This document shows positions 19,799 to 31,475 of a DNA stretch of 44,878 nt, piece by piece; the stretch's first letter is position 1; the number at the start of each line of letters is the position of its first letter. Source of the DNA: a virus (taxonomy: Duplodnaviria > Heunggongvirae > Uroviricota > Caudoviricetes); IMG/VR virus record IMGVR_UViG_2563366802_000013, positions 1-44,878 of that record; one strand, 5' to 3'. The position numbers and the translations under genes were made by a program. The notes under the pieces are model-generated. The model was not told where the DNA came from, ran no database searches, and saw only the letters and a program-made list of their open reading frames with translations.

Positions 19799-20725
19799 CT
19801 ATTTCTCCGCCCAGGCGTAACCGCGCGCCTGCATCGATTTATATTCCTGTTTGAGTTTCGTGATGGTGTCCGGGTATTCCGGCTTGCCGTCCGCATCCAC
19901 CAGCACAGACTGCTGGCTGCATTTGCAGTTGATGGAGTTGCCATCTTTGCTGTACCAGTCACGCACCTCTTCATTGGTGTAGAGGTGGGCATGGCGCACT
20001 GCGTGGGTATGTCGCGTTGTCGGCGACAGAGCTGAGATGTGAACCAGCAGCGTTTTAAGGCCGAACAGGTCATTCGCCTCCTGGTCTTCATCCCATTTGG
20101 CCCGGCGCAGCGCGGTAGTCACTTCAGTGCGTGCTATCCGGTTCGCCCGGCGTTTCTCGATGCCGGTCTGGTCTGTCAGGTTGCGGGCAATGTCCAGCGG
20201 ATTGAGTCCTCGGCCCACGCCATCAGTCAGCACGCGTGCCATATCTCGCTTAACGTCAGCAGTAAGACCCTTCATTTCCTCAAACACACGGGCATGCACC
20301 AGCGCCATGCGTTGCTGGTACGGGTCGCTTGCGAGGATGGACGCCAGCGACTCACGTCCTGCTGCATACACGGGGGATTGCTGGCTTAGGTTGTAGAACG
20401 ACTGCCCGGTCCCTTTCTCCGATGCCAGATCGATGTACTCGTAAAACCACAGGTCGTAATCGCCACCTTCAAGCAGCACCTGATCAACCAGGTAACTGGC
20501 ATCGTTCAGGATGATGGAGAGTAGCGTTGGGTTTAGCTGGTATTCGTATCTGGCGTTTACTGCGAGGGAGGAAGGTATTTTGTCGAGTGCTGATTTGTAC
20601 GCTTTGCCAATCTTATTCATTCGCCTGGCGAAGTCTTTCATTGCCCGGCGTTCCAGCGCATCGGCTCCGGTCGGATCCTGGTAGTTACGCGGCAGAATCG
20701 GTGGCTTCGTCTTTTTCGTCGCCAT
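19799..20725 (-). CDS. Phage head morphogenesis protein (SPP1 gp7 / Mu F-like)
   Basis: 308 aa directly downstream of portal; composition and position typical of the minor head protein family. Confidence 0.75.
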   Translation of the reverse strand: MATKKTKPPILPRNYQDPTGADALERRAMKDFARRMNKIGKAYKSALDKIPSSLAVNARYEYQLNPTLLSIILNDASYLVDQVLLEGGDYDLWFYEYIDLASEKGTGQSFYNLSQQSPVYAAGRESLASILASDPYQQRMALVHARVFEEMKGLTADVKRDMARVLTDGVGRGLNPLDIARNLTDQTGIEKRRANRIARTEVTTALRRAKWDEDQEANDLFGLKTLLVHISALSPTTRHTHAVRHAHLYTNEEVRDWYSKDGNSINCKCSQQSVLVDADGKPEYPDTITKLKQEYKSMQARGYAWAEK

Positions 20726-22031
20726 CTTCTCCTAACGGCTCCTCGTCATCATTGTCATAGCCCGCAGCAGTGCGAATCTCTTTACGACTGAATGCTGGCT
20801 CTTCGCCACTGCCCTGCATGGTCTGGTTAATCTCGCCCATGGTCTTGGCGTTAGTGAGCTTCTCAGTACCGGTCTGTTCGTTCAGGTCATCCCAGATAAC
20901 AGCCTTCTGGCTTACTGAGTCGACTATCTGCAGGTCGATAAGCTTGTCGCAGAAGTCCTCTATCTCGAAAGCGAGGTCTACTCGGCGCGACTGACAGCGA
21001 GCATTAAAGTATTTCTGGTCTTCAGTGCTGGACCGCTCAGCCTGCTGGTTACCAACCAGAATGCGGGTCGGGATATCAACTCCGGCGGCAGCGGTTTGCA
21101 GGTTGACGTTATAGGTCGCTGACGGATCAGCTACAGCAGTAACCAGCGGTGTCACCGTGGCCCCTTGGGTTGTCATCAAAACATCGTTGCCACGGTTCAT
21201 TTCCCCGGCAACTTCGTTAAACTTATCCTGCAACTCGTCAATGCTCACGCCATAAAGTGACGCAAGATTGTTGAAGTCGATTTCCTTCTCAAAGTTGACA
21301 TTAAGCTGGCGCGCGGCGTTCTTCAGGAATGACTCGCCGGATCCACCCTCTACCTTCTCCAGGCTTACAAAGGCGTTATAAGCTGGCTCAAGGAAGCCAA
21401 TAGCATCGTCTGAGTAATCACCAAGGATGAAAACGCGATCGGGGTGGATATTGACGCGGCGACTTGAACCATTCGGCAAGCGTTCGGCGTACTGCCACAT
21501 TTTCGGCTGACCGTAAGTCTTCGAGTTCAGCCCAGTGTCCCACTCGCTCACCGTTAGCGATCCGGCCCATGCCACGGAAACCTTCTGCAACCCTCGCCCT
21601 TTGGTAACCGGAAGGTTCCAGTCTTTTTCATCGCGGACGTGCAGAAGGATGCCTGCATAACGACCGACAAGGCGACGACGATCCGCCTCGGCAAATGAGC
21701 GCCAGAACCGGTTGTTGAATACCTGCTTTGACTTGTTTTCCCAGGCGGTTTCGTTTTCACTCTCGTCGGCATCGTCACCCTCAATGATTTCCGGGTTCGT
21801 CTGCCAGCACTTGCCCACCAGCTTCTCAACGGCACCGTGAGCGATACCACCGCGCCGGTACAGGGCATAGAGATTTTCGTAGGTTACCTGCTCAGGGAAG
21901 CCATACTCACACCATGCGGAATGGCGCTTATTGTCCAGCCCCATCGTCGGTGCCATCAGCCCCATACGGGCGCGCGCCATCCGCGCATCGTTCAACGCAT
22001 GGTTGACGGCGAGAGTTAATTGGTCAGTCAT
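20685..22031 (-). CDS. Portal protein
   Basis: 448 aa immediately downstream of terminase large subunit; acidic C-terminal tail. Confidence 0.75.
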   Translation of the reverse strand: MTDQLTLAVNHALNDARMARARMGLMAPTMGLDNKRHSAWCEYGFPEQVTYENLYALYRRGGIAHGAVEKLVGKCWQTNPEIIEGDDADESENETAWENKSKQVFNNRFWRSFAEADRRRLVGRYAGILLHVRDEKDWNLPVTKGRGLQKVSVAWAGSLTVSEWDTGLNSKTYGQPKMWQYAERLPNGSSRRVNIHPDRVFILGDYSDDAIGFLEPAYNAFVSLEKVEGGSGESFLKNAARQLNVNFEKEIDFNNLASLYGVSIDELQDKFNEVAGEMNRGNDVLMTTQGATVTPLVTAVADPSATYNVNLQTAAAGVDIPTRILVGNQQAERSSTEDQKYFNARCQSRRVDLAFEIEDFCDKLIDLQIVDSVSQKAVIWDDLNEQTGTEKLTNAKTMGEINQTMQGSGEEPAFSRKEIRTAAGYDNDDEEPLGEDGDEKDEATDSAA

Positions 22032-24022: not shown

Positions 24023-24661
24023 TTACGCCAGCTTCAACATGCACGTCCCGCATGACCTGGCTATATCGATGTGAGCCACTTCTGCTGGCGCATTGGCCGC
24101 ATCAACGAGCTCCTGTACTTCTTTGCTGGCACCGTATCGCCGTACGACACCAGTGAATTCTTCGACGTCGTGGCCGCGCAGTGTAAGCACTGGCTTCCCG
24201 GTCTCTTTGTTGAACTTCGGCGCGCCGAAATCATCTGTGGCCTGGGCGATGTGGTAAAGCTCATGCTCTACCAGTGCGCAGAATTCAAGGTCGCTACACT
24301 GTGAACAGTAATCGGCCGCCAGCGTGATGATGAACTTCGGTATGCGTCCGAACCATTCATGCATCTGCTGTTCCATTCTGGCTTTCTGCCAACCGCCGGC
24401 GCGAAGCATTACCTGTTCGGCCTGACCGAGAACATAGCGCCCCTTCTTCGCGAAAGAGTCAGACGCCCACATGAAGCAGAGGTCAGCTTCAAGAAGGTGT
24501 TCATGGTCTGGGTTATGGATGCTGCCGGTATCGCTGAGGATTTGGCGGTTTATCCACTCACGCACTTCGTTGGCGGGAATGAGCCGGGTGTATGGCTGCC
24601 AGTTCTCGGAGGCGATGAAGTTAACTGGCGGATAAGGCCTGCGCTCGTCATCGTTAGCCAT
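24023..24661 (-). CDS. HExxH motif protein (putative zinc metallopeptidase-like), function unknown
   Basis: 212 aa; HELYH motif in ...CALVEHELYHIAQ...; ATG start; between Rha and TerS. Confidence 0.6.
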   Translation of the reverse strand: MANDDERRPYPPVNFIASENWQPYTRLIPANEVREWINRQILSDTGSIHNPDHEHLLEADLCFMWASDSFAKKGRYVLGQAEQVMLRAGGWQKARMEQQMHEWFGRIPKFIITLAADYCSQCSDLEFCALVEHELYHIAQATDDFGAPKFNKETGKPVLTLRGHDVEEFTGVVRRYGASKEVQELVDAANAPAEVAHIDIARSCGTCMLKLA

Positions 24662-24664
24662 GGG

Positions 24665-24871
24665 TTACTCCGTTGTTTGTTCGGTCTGCTCTGCTGGTAC
24701 TGGCGTGAACTCCACGCGCTTCACGTCGGCAGGGGCAAAGTAAAGCCACTGTCCAGTTTCGGTAGCCAGCGGCACAAAGCCGTTTACCAGTTCAGGCTGA
24801 CGTCGTGACATCTTGCCCGTGAAGGTTTCGCCTGTTTGCGTGGTTAGGGTGATTTGGTAGATGTAGGACAT
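24665..24871 (-). CDS. Hypothetical 68-aa protein
   Basis: ATG with AAAGAGGT SD; stop 1 nt before the HExxH gene start. Confidence 0.45.
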   Translation of the reverse strand: MSYIYQITLTTQTGETFTGKMSRRQPELVNGFVPLATETGQWLYFAPADVKRVEFTPVPAEQTEQTTE

Positions 24872-25026
24872 GATTACCTCTTTGCCTTGTCGCAGCTGTT
24901 GCCCTGCTTCTCAGAAGTGCTTAGCCACTTACGGCTTACCCGTCAGCAAGATATGATCACCATCCTTGCGGGGTTACACAGATCATTATCGAAGCCCCTC
25001 AGTGAAGAGCTTCTGTAATGTCGCGA

Positions 25027-25551
25027 TCAGCCAATCAACAATTCTGGCTGCGTCACCTGCATGATGTGCTCATGCTCAACGGCCAGAACGCGCTTTTCCT
25101 TCTTGCGTTCGTTCATCAATCTGCTGCCGATCGTGCCTTTCAGCTTCGAACGCGTTTCTTTGATGGCGTAGCGGTGCTGCATTTCTTCGCCCATCGCCAG
25201 ACGTCTGCTAAGTTGTTCGGCCATCCAGTTAAATGCGGCGATGTATTGCTCTTTAATAGCGGTAGCTACTTTCCCGGTAAATCCCATTACCAGCATCATC
25301 CACCCGTCTTTTGTGATGTTGTACATCAGACGCATTTCGCCTTTTTTATCGAGATATTCAACGGGCTCAAAATTGAGCCGGTTAAAATCAGGCGAGCAAT
25401 CAACCTCCAGCCGCTTGATAGCACGCAGAACGTTTTTATGCGCCTTGCCGAAATAGCTGGCGATCTTCATAGAAGTGGTGATGACCTTCCCGTTACATGG
25501 CATGACCATTTCGCGGAAGTCGAAGGCTGGAATAACTGACGGATTATTCAT
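25027..25551 (-). CDS. rha: Phage regulatory protein Rha
   Basis: N-terminal domain ...GKVITTSMKIASYFGKAHKNVLRAIKRLEVD matches the Rha/ORF6 N-terminal family; probable ATG at about 25551. Confidence 0.7.
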   Translation of the reverse strand: MNNPSVIPAFDFREMVMPCNGKVITTSMKIASYFGKAHKNVLRAIKRLEVDCSPDFNRLNFEPVEYLDKKGEMRLMYNITKDGWMMLVMGFTGKVATAIKEQYIAAFNWMAEQLSRRLAMGEEMQHRYAIKETRSKLKGTIGSRLMNERKKEKRVLAVEHEHIMQVTQPELLIG

Positions 25552-25696
25552 AGCGTCTTTACCTTTTAGAAAGATGAGCCTGTTCGCACAGAAAAGCCGC
25601 CCCGAGATGGTCGCCACCATATACGGCAGTTCTCAGGCTCAGCTTTCTGAAAGACTCGGGATTGTTATGCGCTGCGATGCGCGGTTTACTGCGGGC

Positions 25697-25724
25697 ATAA
25701 AAAAGCCCGACCGAAGTCAGGCTC
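25697..25724 (-). terminator. Intrinsic terminator downstream of the lysis cassette
   Basis: Minus-strand hairpin AGCCTGAC-ttcg-GTCGGGCT followed by U6. Confidence 0.5.
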
Positions 25725-25742
25725 TGTTATTTGGGTAACGAA

Positions 25743-26216
25743 TCATTTAAGACACTGCTCTTTGATGTAGTCCTGCATGCCGCGAATCATTTTGTCAGCG
25801 GTTGCGATTCCGTCCCGGTGATCGAAATAATTCCGTCGAGCGTCTGGAGTAAGTTCGGGGGATCCTGCATCATCCACGCCGGAGGCGGAGGTGGCTTTGG
25901 ACACTCCAGGGCAGGTTGCAGCGATGCGCAGCCGTTTAGCGCCAGAATCGACATCCCGACGCAAATCGTTAATGGTTTTTTTCGCATCGGACAATTCCTT
26001 CGTGTATTTGGCATCCAGTGCAGCGACATCACGCTGACGTGTCTGCATGTCTTTGATGGTAGCGTGAGCCAGGCTGAGTTTCTCAGTGGCTTTATCGCGC
26101 TGGTCTTTATAGGTGATGGCGTTGTCGCGGTAGTGGTTAACGAAGAACGCCAGCACGCCGATTACCGACACCACAATCAGTTGCAGCCAGTAACGCTTAA
26201 CCAGCGCGCCAATCAT
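25743..26216 (-). CDS. Rz: i-spanin Rz
   Basis: 157 aa; N-terminal TM segment then coiled-coil periplasmic domain; overlaps endolysin stop; contains embedded Rz1 frame. Confidence 0.8.
   Translation of the reverse strand: MIGALVKRYWLQLIVVSVIGVLAFFVNHYRDNAITYKDQRDKATEKLSLAHATIKDMQTRQRDVAALDAKYTKELSDAKKTINDLRRDVDSGAKRLRIAATCPGVSKATSASGVDDAGSPELTPDARRNYFDHRDGIATADKMIRGMQDYIKEQCLK
25787..25987 (-). CDS. Rz1: o-spanin Rz1 (embedded in Rz, +1 frame)
   Basis: Lipobox LALNGC followed by Pro-rich segment (PKPPPPPAW); start taken at internal Met about 25987. Confidence 0.7.
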   Translation of the reverse strand: MRKKPLTICVGMSILALNGCASLQPALECPKPPPPPAWMMQDPPNLLQTLDGIISITGTESQPLTK

Positions 26217-26653
26217 GATAGGAACAGAGTCCGCTCTGCCTCCCGCCGACGAGTCAGCCCGTTAAGGACCTTACCACCCGCTTTATTCCAGCGCAGGAAC
26301 TCATCGGCAGCGCCAGCGTAATCTCCGGCGTTGAGTTTTCGCAGAAGAGTCGATGTCGACAGTGACCGGGCTCCGAGGTTGTACGTGAACGACACCAGGG
26401 CGTCGAATTGCCCCTGAGTCAGACCAACTTTAACCAGGCGAGACACGTCGCTTTCGTAGCTGACAAGTCCGGTCTTCAGCAGGCGTTCTGCCGTTTCCTG
26501 CTTAATCGTCATCCCGGCGCGGATTGGTTTGCCATCGACAGGCTGAGTCCAGCCATATCCGATCGTCCATACACCGACACTGTCCCGGTAGGCGGTGAGT
26601 CTACAGCCTTCGAATTCTTTGATTAGGGCAATGCCCTTTTCGCTGGTTTGCAT
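26213..26653 (-). CDS. Endolysin (phage lysozyme, glycoside hydrolase 24-like)
   Basis: 146 aa; N-terminus GIALIKEFEGCRLTAYRD...WTIGYGWT is the classic T4-type lysozyme catalytic block. Confidence 0.9.
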   Translation of the reverse strand: MQTSEKGIALIKEFEGCRLTAYRDSVGVWTIGYGWTQPVDGKPIRAGMTIKQETAERLLKTGLVSYESDVSRLVKVGLTQGQFDALVSFTYNLGARSLSTSTLLRKLNAGDYAGAADEFLRWNKAGGKVLNGLTRRREAERTLFLS

Positions 26654-26656
26654 GGA

Positions 26657-26932
26657 CTACTCCGTTATAACGACCTTCGCCAGGTTCCCGCGAGCCAGCC
26701 ACACCGCCATGCAGATGACGGAGTTAAGCAGCAGGTCGCCGAGGTTAACCTGTACGTAGTGGCCGAGCAGAATGTTGAAGGCATTGAATCCGGCGGCAAG
26801 GATGACCAGATAGGCCAGCACCGCGACACTAAGGCGATGACGCTTTCCCTCTTTCCGGAAAAACATCAGCCTGACCATGATTAACAGGCAAACTATGGCG
26901 TTTGCATCCATCAGAAGAAGCTGCCATGTCAT
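26657..26932 (-). CDS. Holin-like membrane protein (second holin or antiholin)
   Basis: 91 aa with two hydrophobic segments; immediately upstream of the endolysin. Confidence 0.6.
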   Translation of the reverse strand: MTWQLLLMDANAIVCLLIMVRLMFFRKEGKRHRLSVAVLAYLVILAAGFNAFNILLGHYVQVNLGDLLLNSVICMAVWLARGNLAKVVITE

Positions 26933-27330
26933 TTATCTTCCTCCCCCAGCCCTGGCATCTTCCCGCTTTTGGATTTGCGGAGAATACGCAGCAGGACTGC
27001 CACGGAAATGGAAGCAGTGACAATTGCACCTACAGCTGGCGATACCTCAATGCTGGCCGGTGGCTTCATCAGGCTTAACGGCGTGTTGATGATTCCGGCC
27101 ATGATTTTCGCCATGGGAACGGAGAAGAACACGCCACTGATAAACGATATCAGCGCAAAGATAGCCTGCTTCCAGAGTTGATGGGGATCTGAGGTCAGAA
27201 CGTATAGCGCCGTTCCGGCGAGTGATCCGAGCATCACTGCTGGAGTCGCCTCCGGAAACAGCGTGGCAAAGGTTACACCGACTGATGACGATGCAAGACC
27301 AACGCCTACGATAGTGAAGGTCTCAGACAT
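26929..27330 (-). CDS. Holin
   Basis: About 133 aa from internal ATG near 27330 (MSETFTIVGVGLA...); three hydrophobic segments and a charged C-terminus; first gene of the lysis cassette. Confidence 0.6.
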   Translation of the reverse strand: MSETFTIVGVGLASSSVGVTFATLFPEATPAVMLGSLAGTALYVLTSDPHQLWKQAIFALISFISGVFFSVPMAKIMAGIINTPLSLMKPPASIEVSPAVGAIVTASISVAVLLRILRKSKSGKMPGLGEEDK

Positions 27331-27510
27331 ATTTATTCCGTGTGTAGTTGGTTCAGGCCCTCGGGACGATTTAACAAGAAGGCATGTCGAGGGTGGTTCC
27401 CGGGGCCTGGAATAAAAAACCTGGCGACAAGCCAGGAAGATGAGGGTAAGGCAATGTCGGCTCTCTGGCCGAAGGGTCCCAGGTAGTGGGTTCTGTGTGC
27501 GGCGTACCGC

Positions 27511-27543
27511 AAATAAAAAAGCCCCGCACGATGGCGAGGCTTG
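27511..27543 (-). terminator. Candidate tR'-like terminator in the late leader downstream of Q
   Basis: Minus-strand hairpin AGCCUCGC-caucgu-GCGGGGCU (one G-U pair) followed by U6AUUU; lies between Q and the holin gene. Confidence 0.45.
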
Positions 27544-27602
27544 GCATTCATTCATGTCACACACAACAACGGCAACATATACGATTTATTCTGCTCATTT
27601 GT

Positions 27603-28103
27603 TCATTGAAAAGCAAGCGCGTTATGAGGATTTTTTGCAATTTTCCTCATATTTTCGCGATTGTTAAACGCATTTTGCAGCGGTTGGTACAAACAGAACA
27701 GTGAGGCATTGATGATTTGCTTCACCTCTCTACGGATTGTCGAGATGCTTGGGTGTTTATACTGATTTCCGCCACGCGTCTTCATCAGGCGAGGCTTACT
27801 TACTGCATGCTGCCATGATGCAATTCGGATCTCGCTGGAGTTACAAACGTAGTAGGCGAAGACAACCCGCCAGGCATTTTCATCCACATTCTTCAGATAG
27901 TGACGAATTACAGCATCAATGAGCATCCCGTCATCATCACTACATACCGGTCGTGATGCTTGCTGGGGCTCGACGGTAGCCATGAATCTGGCAATCATGT
28001 TGATCATCGCTTTATCAATCTTGCCGGTCTGGCACCATGCGCCCCACAACTGGAGCCACTGGTCTACCCATTGATGCTGGTCTTTGGTTAATTCCAGTTT
28101 CAT
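27603..28103 (-). CDS. Q: Late-gene antitermination protein Q (phage 21/82-type family)
   Basis: 166 aa; motifs WLQLWGAWC and RPVCSDDDGMLID...FAYYV match the Q antiterminator family as I recall it; positioned immediately upstream of the lysis genes. Confidence 0.8.
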   Translation of the reverse strand: MKLELTKDQHQWVDQWLQLWGAWCQTGKIDKAMINMIARFMATVEPQQASRPVCSDDDGMLIDAVIRHYLKNVDENAWRVVFAYYVCNSSEIRIASWQHAVSKPRLMKTRGGNQYKHPSISTIRREVKQIINASLFCLYQPLQNAFNNRENMRKIAKNPHNALAFQ

Positions 28104-28862: not shown

Positions 28863-29025
28863 GCGTTCTCCGTGCCGCGAGACGCAGCCATTTCTGATCC
28901 ACCAGGCGGGCGGTGTACCCCTTCAGGGTCGGGATGTCGGACGGATTAACCGCAGGCTTACGCTGGCGGCGCGCCGGAACGCGGAATATTTCGTTTGTGA
29001 TTACGCGGGAAAGTGGAGTAGACAT
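28855..29025 (-). CDS. Hypothetical 56-aa basic protein
   Basis: Below the track's 60-aa cutoff; ATG with AGGAGG SD; TGATG overlap with the HNH stop; stop overlaps the DUF1364 start. Confidence 0.35.
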   Translation of the reverse strand: MSTPLSRVITNEIFRVPARRQRKPAVNPSDIPTLKGYTARLVDQKWLRLAARRTHG

Positions 29026-29546
29026 CAGGCCTCCTGCTTATCGCGCAGCTGCTGGTAGCAATGACTATTGGGCAGTCCGTGATTGACATGGTAACCATGC
29101 TCAGCCTTTGCCTTGTCGCGAGCTTGCTTTGCTTCTTCCATGCTCTCGTAAACACCCACGAACTTTCTTTTTCCGTCGGCGTTGATCTGGACATGCCACT
29201 TGCTTAGTTTTTTATTCCAATGGATACCAATCTCACCTGATGTATTGGTGCTGGGTAGCGATTTGTTACGGGTATTATCCGACTGGCTTATCAGCCTAAG
29301 GTTTTCAATCCGATTGTCTGCTCGGACGTGATTTATGTGGTCAACCTCCATTCCTTCCGGAATTGGGCCGTTTATCATTTCCCATACAATTCTATGCGCC
29401 AGGTATTGACAGCCAGAGTATTCAAACCTTCTGTAGCCATCGCTAAGACATCCTGCAACGTCACCAATTTTTACCCTGTTAGCTGGCTTTATGGCCCACA
29501 CAAGATTTCCATCAACAATGGAAAATATATCGCTCCAGTTATGCAT
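29025..29546 (-). CDS. HNH homing endonuclease with AP2-like domain (second copy)
   Basis: 173 aa; HNH core MEVDHINHVRADNRIENLRLIS; paralogous to ORF 8641-9108 (shared YLAHRI...E.NGPIP block). Confidence 0.8.
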   Translation of the reverse strand: MHNWSDIFSIVDGNLVWAIKPANRVKIGDVAGCLSDGYRRFEYSGCQYLAHRIVWEMINGPIPEGMEVDHINHVRADNRIENLRLISQSDNTRNKSLPSTNTSGEIGIHWNKKLSKWHVQINADGKRKFVGVYESMEEAKQARDKAKAEHGYHVNHGLPNSHCYQQLRDKQEA

Positions 29547-30430: not shown

Positions 30431-31041
30431 GCCTCCTGCTGCGGTGCTGCTGGCAGTGGCATCCAGTGGGTTGGGCTCCATGATGCTCCTGGTATAATCC
30501 AGCCATCTATATCTGCATCCGGATGCCCAGGGCAATTTGTTGCCCATTTCATTGCATAGCCGCCAGGAGCTGATTGCCATGGCGCAGCAACTATCACACC
30601 TGTTGATGGGCTTGGCATCCGCTTACTGCAATCCACCCAACCGTCTGTCAACTCATCACGATTACTTACAGGTTCGGCACCATGAAGCATGGCGGCGCGG
30701 CACTGATTGAATCCATGTGCCCATGCTGATGCAAGAGCCATATCGTCTTCGGTGATTTCCTCTGGAACATCTTCCCAGCAAACTTCATCAGGCACAGATA
30801 CCGGCGCAGGCGGGGCGGAGCGATACAGAAGCACATCCCCCATCTCTGCTCTGGATGCTGGCCACACGTCAGCATCGGAGCCAGATTTGAGATAATCAAG
30901 ATTGGACTGGTCTATGACGCACACAGGCTCCGCTTCGAGCGATGCCAGCGCGATACGCGCCAGCTCCACTACATCATCGTGCGTATAGCATTTCTCGCCG
31001 CTGGCGATACCAGCAACGCGTTCTTTGGTAATAGTGCTCAT
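30427..31041 (-). CDS. Hypothetical protein with C-terminal DUF551-like domain
   Basis: 204 aa; C-terminal W...SKRMP...HWMPLPAAP pattern characteristic of DUF551 phage proteins. Confidence 0.5.
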   Translation of the reverse strand: MSTITKERVAGIASGEKCYTHDDVVELARIALASLEAEPVCVIDQSNLDYLKSGSDADVWPASRAEMGDVLLYRSAPPAPVSVPDEVCWEDVPEEITEDDMALASAWAHGFNQCRAAMLHGAEPVSNRDELTDGWVDCSKRMPSPSTGVIVAAPWQSAPGGYAMKWATNCPGHPDADIDGWIIPGASWSPTHWMPLPAAPQQEA

Positions 31042-31475
31042 GATGCCTCTCCTTTACCGGCTGCGGCGGGTACGTCGATGCCAGCAGCAGACAAAGCTAT
31101 TCGGAACGCTTCCTTCAAATCTGCAATCTGCTTGTCTTTGGCTTCCAGCTCATCCAACATCCTACCCAGAGTTTTGGTGTGCATTTCTTCTCGCTCAAGC
31201 AATGCTGTTCCGCAATGTCGTTGCTCAAGTTCAGCAATCTCATTCAGCAGCGCCAGCATTGTTTCCGGGCTAGCTGCAGCGATATATCTCAATACGTTTT
31301 CAGACTGTTTCACTCTCCCTGCGGCTTTATTCAGACAGTAGATAGCCTCTGCTCCGCCTACTGTGATATATCCCCGCCCTGGGGCGCTGAGGTCGCTGGT
31401 GTAGACGTACTCCCAGTCATTTTGTCCTGCACGTTCAGCCGCTTCACGTAATGCGCGTTTGTCGATGTTGCTCAT
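31038..31475 (-). CDS. Ead/Ea22-like protein
   Basis: 145 aa; N-terminus MSNIDKRALREAAERA... followed by coiled-coil segment typical of Ead/Ea22-like proteins. Confidence 0.65.
   Translation of the reverse strand: MSNIDKRALREAAERAGQNDWEYVYTSDLSAPGRGYITVGGAEAIYCLNKAAGRVKQSENVLRYIAAASPETMLALLNEIAELEQRHCGTALLEREEMHTKTLGRMLDELEAKDKQIADLKEAFRIALSAAGIDVPAAAGKGEAS

Follow-up and report, generated by a model that had tools for sequence, protein, structure and literature searches.

Are the two different membrane proteins encoded ahead of the endolysin gene in this prophage a holin and an antiholin from separate genes, or do they share one function? The question is raised by the region upstream of positions 25743-26216 of the window (i.e. 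the whole stretch of 44,878 nucleotides analysed here), for which the initial annotation had described an Rz1 gene embedded in Rz, downstream of two holin-like genes. It had proposed that holin and antiholin are specified by two genes in this phage rather than by a dual-start motif. We here consider the layout of the lysis cassette, the properties of the two membrane proteins (termed hol133 and hol91 according to their lengths), their distribution among other phages and the roles they may play in lysis.

Layout of the lysis cassette and its surroundings

The window comprises a complete lambdoid prophage, and all of its genes described below are on the minus strand. It matches a lambdoid prophage of Escherichia coli L73 with 100% identity; for the 2-kb stretch around Rz/Rz1, the identity to the L73 chromosome (NZ_CP033378.1) is likewise 100%. 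In L73, RefSeq lists an antiterminator Q, a 'putative holin' (133 aa), a 'phage holin family protein' (91 aa), a lysozyme (146 aa) and a 'lysis protein' (157 aa) in this order, followed by Rha, metallopeptidase and terminase genes. ORF listing and translation of the window gave the same genes, all on the minus strand. The interval 25743-26216 is exactly the ORF of Rz, the 157-aa i-spanin (PF03245, phrog_13). The holin pair and the endolysin gene lie outside of it, at 26213-27330, and comprise hol133 (26929-27330; PF16931, phrog_198), hol91 (26657-26932; PF05449, phrog_217) and a GH24 lysozyme (26213-26653; PF00959, phrog_7). Rz1, the 66-aa o-spanin, is found at 25787-25987 (PF06085, phrog_3198). 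All five lysis genes match curated families far above the respective thresholds; NCBIfam has no model for these holins or spanins. At two junctions, hol133/hol91 and lysozyme/Rz, neighbouring genes overlap in an ATGA motif.

Directly upstream of the cassette we found the gene of a Q-family late-gene antiterminator (27603-28103; PF06530 Phage_antitermQ, E=2e-21; 'antiterminator Q family protein' in RefSeq). Q is separated from the first lysis gene by a leader of 272 nt, which contains two intrinsic-terminator-like hairpins (27542-27519 and 27436-27420), both with U-runs, recognised by a consensus scan and in the sequence itself; in the consensus scan, the number of such hairpins in the leader does not exceed the expectation from shuffled sequences. 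Because their position is typical of lambdoid late operons, the hairpins at 27420-27542 are candidate tR'-like sites that may be overridden by Q. Another intrinsic-terminator-like hairpin with a U-run follows just past the Rz stop codon (25697-25730; RNA fold of -19.2 kcal/mol, z=-2.8), and the homologous stretch carries the label 'terminator' in Salmonella phage epsilon34. The cassette is a common, standard lambda-style arrangement, publicly annotated except for Rz1, and its reading as a lambdoid late-operon lysis cassette is very probable.

Some further genes of the prophage deserve mention. The stretch from the lysis cassette to the terminase genes (24023-25620) encodes a regulator of the Rha family (PF09669), a phrog_6581 protein of 68 aa and a 'putative phage metallopeptidase' of 212 aa (PF18894), for which PHROGs gives the category 'transposase'. 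The gene at 20685-22031 is located between those of the large terminase and a minor head protein, and its 448-aa product bears the PGAP name 'anti-CBASS protein Acb1 family protein'. A match to Pfam Phage_portal_3 (E=2e-16) was obtained for this protein, and in all likelihood it is the portal protein, the name Acb1 apparently having been carried over from another annotation. In the early/nin region, RefSeq lists a homologue of the DNA polymerase III theta subunit and an HNH endonuclease between a ybcN-like gene and ninE (window ~30791-31045 and ~29025-29546; L001 2556-2810 and 4055-4576).

Rz matches the Rz lysis protein family PF03245 over residues 32-155 (E=1e-40) and phrog_13 (2e-68). According to hydropathy, its only hydrophobic segment lies near the N-terminus (residues 8-30), i.e. 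an N-terminal TMD, followed by a periplasmic domain with Cys102 and Cys155. The Rz1 start is situated 229 nt past that of Rz, and since 229 mod 3 is 1, Rz1 is read in the +1 frame; its stop lies 44 nt ahead of the Rz stop, which makes it fully embedded in Rz. Its sequence begins with MRKKPLTICVGMSILALNGC followed by ASLQPALECPKPPPPPAW..., and it matches the Rz1 lipoprotein precursor family PF06085 (E=1.5e-16) and phrog_3198 (5e-22). Signal peptide and lipobox read MRKKPLTICVGMSILALNG followed by Cys, the lipobox being LNG with Cys at position 20 and Ala, a non-Asp residue, at +2. The protein has a basic N-terminus, a hydrophobic core and a second Cys at position 29, and its mature part contains 10 prolines in 47 aa, including a run of five. 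Hence the initial annotation, which had placed Rz1 wholly inside Rz in the +1 frame, had pointed to an LNGC lipobox and a poly-proline stretch and had called the architecture a known one, agrees with the frame arithmetic and the family matches in each of these respects. Most Rz homologues down to ~55% identity keep a +1-frame ORF with signal peptide, lipobox Cys and the motif PPAW(M/A)M, so that Rz1 is a conserved gene rather than a chance ORF. With an i-spanin, an o-spanin and full embedding in the +1 frame all present, the prediction of a lambda-type embedded two-component spanin is fully supported. The RefSeq (PGAP) feature table of L73 lists only the enclosing 'lysis protein' (Rz) and not Rz1, a common omission.

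The endolysin (146 aa) matches PF00959 with E=1e-50 as well as phrog_7. By inspection, its residues E15, D24 and T30 show the Glu-8aa-Asp-5aa-Thr spacing of the T4-lysozyme catalytic triad, and hydropathy gives no N-terminal hydrophobic window and neither a SAR nor a TM segment. As judged from these features, it is a soluble cytoplasmic GH24 phage lysozyme of the T4/P22 type. A soluble endolysin without an N-terminal hydrophobic segment needs a holin that forms large holes, for which a pinholin would be insufficient. A pinholin/SAR-endolysin system was considered and rejected, as no SAR domain is present in this lysozyme or in the 15 partner endolysins discussed below.

The two holin-like membrane proteins

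Two distinct holin-like membrane proteins do precede the endolysin gene, as had been proposed. hol133 matches PF16931 (Phage_holin_8) with E=2.2e-11 and 44.4 bits versus a cut-off of 26.4, and phrog_198, named 'holin', with 1e-30. The corresponding values of hol91 are 1.9e-20 and 73.1 bits versus a cut-off of 25.4 for PF05449 (Phage_holin_3_7, formerly DUF754), and 2.5e-28 for phrog_217, likewise named 'holin'. The initial annotation would have been undermined if one of the two proteins had lacked TM segments. This is the case for neither of them: hydropathy gave four hydrophobic segments for hol133 and three for hol91, and AlphaFold2 models built from the family alignments, which are only of moderate confidence (pLDDT 66 and 72, respectively), show helices at residues 3-24, 30-46, 52-85 and 98-121 of hol133 and at residues 3-23, 34-55 and 64-79 of hol91. 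Both are small membrane proteins with at least one TMD, encoded beside an endolysin gene, and thus have the features by which holins are recognised.

In the hol91 family, about 4 K/R residues are found in loop 1 and about 3 in the C-terminus, with essentially none in the N-terminus and loop 2. From this distribution and the model, hol91 is a candidate for a class-I-like holin with three TMDs in N-out/C-in orientation, the class I topology of lambda S105. For hol133, the situation is less clear-cut. Its C-terminal tail is highly charged and cytoplasmic (RKSKSGK...EEDK; family mean of 4.8 K/R), loop 2 is cytoplasmic as well, and the first helix is weakly hydrophobic and rich in Gly, Ala, Ser and Thr. 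The protein may have four TM segments with the N-terminus inside or three with the N-terminus outside.

The initial annotation had further assumed separate holin-like genes instead of a dual start, and this holds as well, since neither gene has a second Met after a K/R codon. hol91 begins with MTWQLLLMD, devoid of K/R, and homologues do not share its Met8; hol133 begins with MSETF and its next Met is residue 33. A dual start of the lambda type was therefore rejected for both genes. In the two families, the N-terminal K/R means amount to 0-0.12 per protein. The hol91 start, which overlaps the hol133 stop in the ATGA motif, is preceded by a strong Shine-Dalgarno sequence, GGGAGGAAG, while that of hol133 is weak. 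The start of hol133 is backed by RefSeq and by the alignment with its homologues, which extends over the full length of the protein. Some gene callers and databases give a 200-211-aa 'holin' ORF that runs from a GTG through the leader hairpins. We rejected the corresponding 211-aa GTG-started extension of hol133 (26929-27564), as it crosses both terminator-like hairpins and homologues start with MSEP or MSET.

An aberrant hol91 orthologue was encountered in E. coli XJ5.2 (NZ_CP074354.1; L002 3596-3870), where a 1-nt deletion, changing GTGGCGGTG to GTGCGGTG, causes a frameshift in a cassette that is otherwise 93% identical; RefSeq lists this hol91 as a 54-aa C-terminal fragment only. Similar hol91 fragments of 52-54 aa recur in the protein database (P0068 and P0069), pointing to prophage decay or to a sequencing error that occurs repeatedly.

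Distribution and exchange of the holin-like pair

By tblastn against GenBank phages, homologues of hol133 and hol91 were found adjacent to each other in very different phages. We scanned 15 phage records, with hosts among the Gamma- and Betaproteobacteria, with profile HMMs of both families; the sample includes N4-like phages (Pylas, Pollock), P2-like phages (Burkholderia AP3, Ralstonia RSA1, Aeromonas LPM4), lambdoid phages (mEp390, HK639, AsXd-1, 705R4), Casjensviridae (Seifer, MA11) and others. A hol133-family gene is located immediately upstream of a hol91-family gene in 15/15 records. Three scans of IMG/VR, seeded with divergent members, gave the same picture, the pair being adjacent and in the same order in 159/159, 77/77 and 79/79 assessable loci (315/315); the few apparent exceptions have no upstream sequence because the contig ends there. 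It has to be considered that the loci within each scan are closely related and therefore represent few independent observations. The arrangement was also seen in one Enterobacter chromosome, here according to precomputed Pfam labels. Overlap or coupling of the hol133 stop and the hol91 start occurs nearly everywhere, with distances of -3, -10 and -25 being the commonest. The PF16931 + DUF754 pair is thus a very widespread and strictly co-inherited holin module present in hundreds of phages; databases label it variously as 'holin', 'holin/antiholin' or 'hypothetical'.

The pair is rare in E. coli, where 2/5426 complete genomes have most of the cassette, and common in Enterobacter prophages. Copies with 99-100% amino acid identity occur in hundreds of prophage contigs of IMG/VR and in two Enterobacter phages, ENT1 and BHUENT3. 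In IMG/VR, near-identical pairs (98-100%) are joined to at least three endolysins: the GH24 enzyme, a 158-aa lambda-R-like protein and a 180-aa protein, which we take to be of the GH108 type because its N-terminus resembles that of the Seifer endolysin, the record of which cites GH108 InterPro families. At least five enzyme types are represented among the partner endolysins of the 15 phages. No N-terminal hydrophobic segment was seen in any of these endolysins, and partners this diverse, all without such a segment, would require a non-specific large-hole holin. In sister E. coli prophages, Q is of the same family, the leader DNA matches and the lysozyme and Rz genes are close relatives of those here; one 101-aa LydA-type holin (PF16083) is found in place of the pair, which has been swapped as a block. 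Replacement of both genes by a single holin argues that the pair is functionally equivalent to a holin gene. Taken together, hol133 and hol91 behave as one exchangeable unit that serves soluble endolysins non-specifically.

IMG/VR loci L010-L169 link pairs with 98-100% amino acid identity to three unrelated endolysins and to Rz genes of 30% to 100% identity, a clear case of modules being shuffled precisely at the border between holin and endolysin genes.

The two families have diverged to a similar degree (mean pairwise identities of 0.32 and 0.33). A mirror-tree comparison gave a Pearson correlation of 0.71 (Mantel p ~2e-4) and a Spearman correlation of 0.17, the signal being driven by a few close pairs and favouring none of the role assignments discussed below.

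Division of labour and comparison with known systems

Pairs of this kind have been labelled before. In Burkholderia phages KS5, KS14 and KL3, Lynch et al. 2010 (PMC3091744) called the first protein a 'putative antiholin' and the second a 'holin (DUF754)', expressly giving gene position and TM counts as their grounds. GenBank notes read 'Antiholin paired with adjacent holin' for Klebsiella phage Pylas and 'putative holin-antiholin' for both genes of Klebsiella phage Seifer. The existing 'antiholin + holin' labels have thus been assigned by inference only, from gene position and TM counts; in our literature search on PF16931, PF05449, DUF754, the InterPro identifiers and two-component holins we found no functional study.

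A holin plus an antiholin is a plausible interpretation of hol133 and hol91 and one of two readings that fit. In the version that we favour, and to which we would give an even chance, hol91 would be the hole-former, because of its three TMDs and an N-out/C-in topology like that of lambda S105, and hol133 a dedicated timing partner, i.e. an antiholin-like regulator. Two points count against this assignment of roles: a long charged tail at the C-terminus, considered characteristic of holins, is present in hol133 and not in hol91, and both proteins are named 'holin' by PHROGs and Pfam. The reverse assignment, with hol133 as the hole-forming holin and hol91 as antiholin or regulator, would account for the classic cytoplasmic tail of hol133, with its family mean of 4.8 K/R, and would conform to the Pfam and PHROGs names of this protein and to its first place in the operon. 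We nevertheless consider it improbable: the class-I layout with three TMDs in N-out/C-in orientation belongs to hol91, the Shine-Dalgarno sequence is strong for hol91 and weak for hol133, hol91 directly precedes the endolysin gene in all sampled phages, and it is the DUF754 protein that was called holin, by inference, in Lynch et al. 2010 (PMC3091744) and in the records of Pylas and AP3. Still far less credible is the idea that hol133 does not take part in lysis and represents a moron or a superinfection-exclusion membrane protein inserted between Q and the holin gene. Lambdoid phages commonly carry morons directly after Q, and in mEp390 and one Enterobacter locus (L340) a reverse-strand gene indeed lies between Q and the pair; yet hol133, translationally coupled to hol91, occupies the same position in N4-like and P2-like phages, where a Q region is absent, and the two genes are swapped out together as one block.

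The other reading that fits is a two-component holin, which agrees with the data as well as holin plus antiholin does. In this case, hol133 and hol91 would be subunits of one obligate heteromeric holin, neither of them forming holes alone and no antiholin being involved. Strict co-inheritance across unrelated phage types fits such an obligate system just as well: adjacency and order are kept across ~20-35% identity and unrelated phage families, start/stop overlap or coupling (ATGA in the window) is nearly universal, and both families diverge at about the same rate (0.32 and 0.33). Moreover, a phage can usually do without its antiholin, so that occasional losses would be expected. On the other hand, the IMG/VR loci form three groups of close relatives and thus provide few independent observations, and conserved antiholins encoded by separate genes also exist, e.g. 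P1 lydA/lydB and T4 t/rI. The concept of a heteromeric holin has been documented for Gram-positive and mycobacterial phages (PMC6116005). On balance, an obligate heteromer is possible, though we are doubtful about it. With similar reserve we put forward its generalisation, namely that PF16931 and PF05449 constitute, instead of a holin with a dispensable antiholin, an obligate heteromeric holin widespread in phages of Gram-negatives, in which the helical hairpin at the N-terminus of hol133, weakly hydrophobic and rich in Gly, Ala, Ser and Thr, is possibly a membrane-exiting (SAR-like) timer. If true, no system of this kind would have been defined in Gram-negative hosts before, and the window would be one of hundreds of equally good examples.

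The cassette as a whole very probably acts as a late-operon lysis cassette of a lambdoid prophage along the canonical three-step holin-endolysin-spanin pathway. According to this proposal, Q-antiterminated late transcription through the leader with its two terminator-like hairpins would express five translationally coupled genes. The two-gene holin module of hol133 and hol91 would accumulate in the inner membrane and open large non-specific holes at a programmed time, allowing the soluble GH24 lysozyme to escape to the periplasm and to degrade the murein. The complex of Rz in the inner membrane and Rz1, the outer-membrane lipoprotein, freed from the murein mesh, would finally disrupt the outer membrane.

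The spanin genes are the part of the cassette closest to phage lambda. Lambda Rz and Rz1 belong to the same Pfam families (PF03245 and PF06085), Rz1 is likewise fully embedded in the +1 frame and the N-terminus of Rz contains a TMD; the lipobox Cys, a non-Asp residue at +2, a proline-rich mature part and the motif PPPPPAW are common to lambda Rz1 and the protein encoded here. We take the Rz cysteines at ~102 and 155 and Cys29 of Rz1 to be at positions equivalent to those in lambda, and the basic N-terminus, hydrophobic core, lipobox, second Cys and proline richness of Rz1 also correspond to those of lambda Rz1. Apart from the length of Rz1 (60 aa in lambda versus 66 aa here) and the Asn at -2 of the lipobox (LNGC) there is no difference of substance. 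The annotated Rz/Rz1 genes of phi80 have 84.5% DNA identity to the Rz/Rz1 region described here over 229 bp.

With regard to the holin function, hol91 resembles lambda S105/S107 in its predicted class I topology with three TMDs in N-out/C-in orientation, and the position at the head of a Q-dependent late operon and the service to a soluble endolysin are alike as well. Unlike in lambda, there is no dual-start motif, no detectable similarity to S105/S107, and a second membrane-protein gene is present instead. A holin regulator from a gene of its own is known in concept from P2 Y/LysA and P1 LydA/LydB, and P2 LysA is, like hol133, a multi-TMD membrane protein of ~140 aa. P2 LysA is also the one characterised antiholin from a separate gene with which annotators compare hol133. 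However, hhalign detected no homology between hol133 and P2 LysA (probability 2.5%), for which no Pfam family exists, or between hol91 and P2 Y (0.1%), so that homology provides no basis for assigning the roles. Given this result and the different gene order, with P2 lysA placed after the endolysin gene and hol133 before hol91, hol133 was rejected as a LysA-type antiholin. The pinholin-plus-regulator pair gp62/gp63 of N4 (PMC12642591) was also dismissed as a precedent, the two proteins having 2 and 1 TMDs and different lengths. The review PMC6116005 cites T4 and P2 for antiholins encoded by separate genes and states that the holin-like pairs of SPP1 (gp24.1/gp26), PBSX (XhlA/XhlB) and Ms6 (Gp4/Gp5) may jointly constitute the holin. 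These pairs are similar to the one described here in that adjacent holin-like genes possibly form one functional unit; in contrast to it, they come from Gram-positive or mycobacterial phages and their sequences are unrelated. The nearest counterparts are the annotated PF16931 + PF05449 pairs of the P2-like Burkholderia phages KS5, KS14, KL3 and AP3, Klebsiella phages Pylas and Seifer, Ralstonia phage RSA1 and coliphages Pollock, mEp390 and HK639. As in the window, the two genes overlap, occur in the same order and are located directly upstream of a soluble endolysin and spanins; identity to most of them is 20-35%, and the partner endolysins and spanins differ, as is usual for the ordinary mosaicism of phage genomes.
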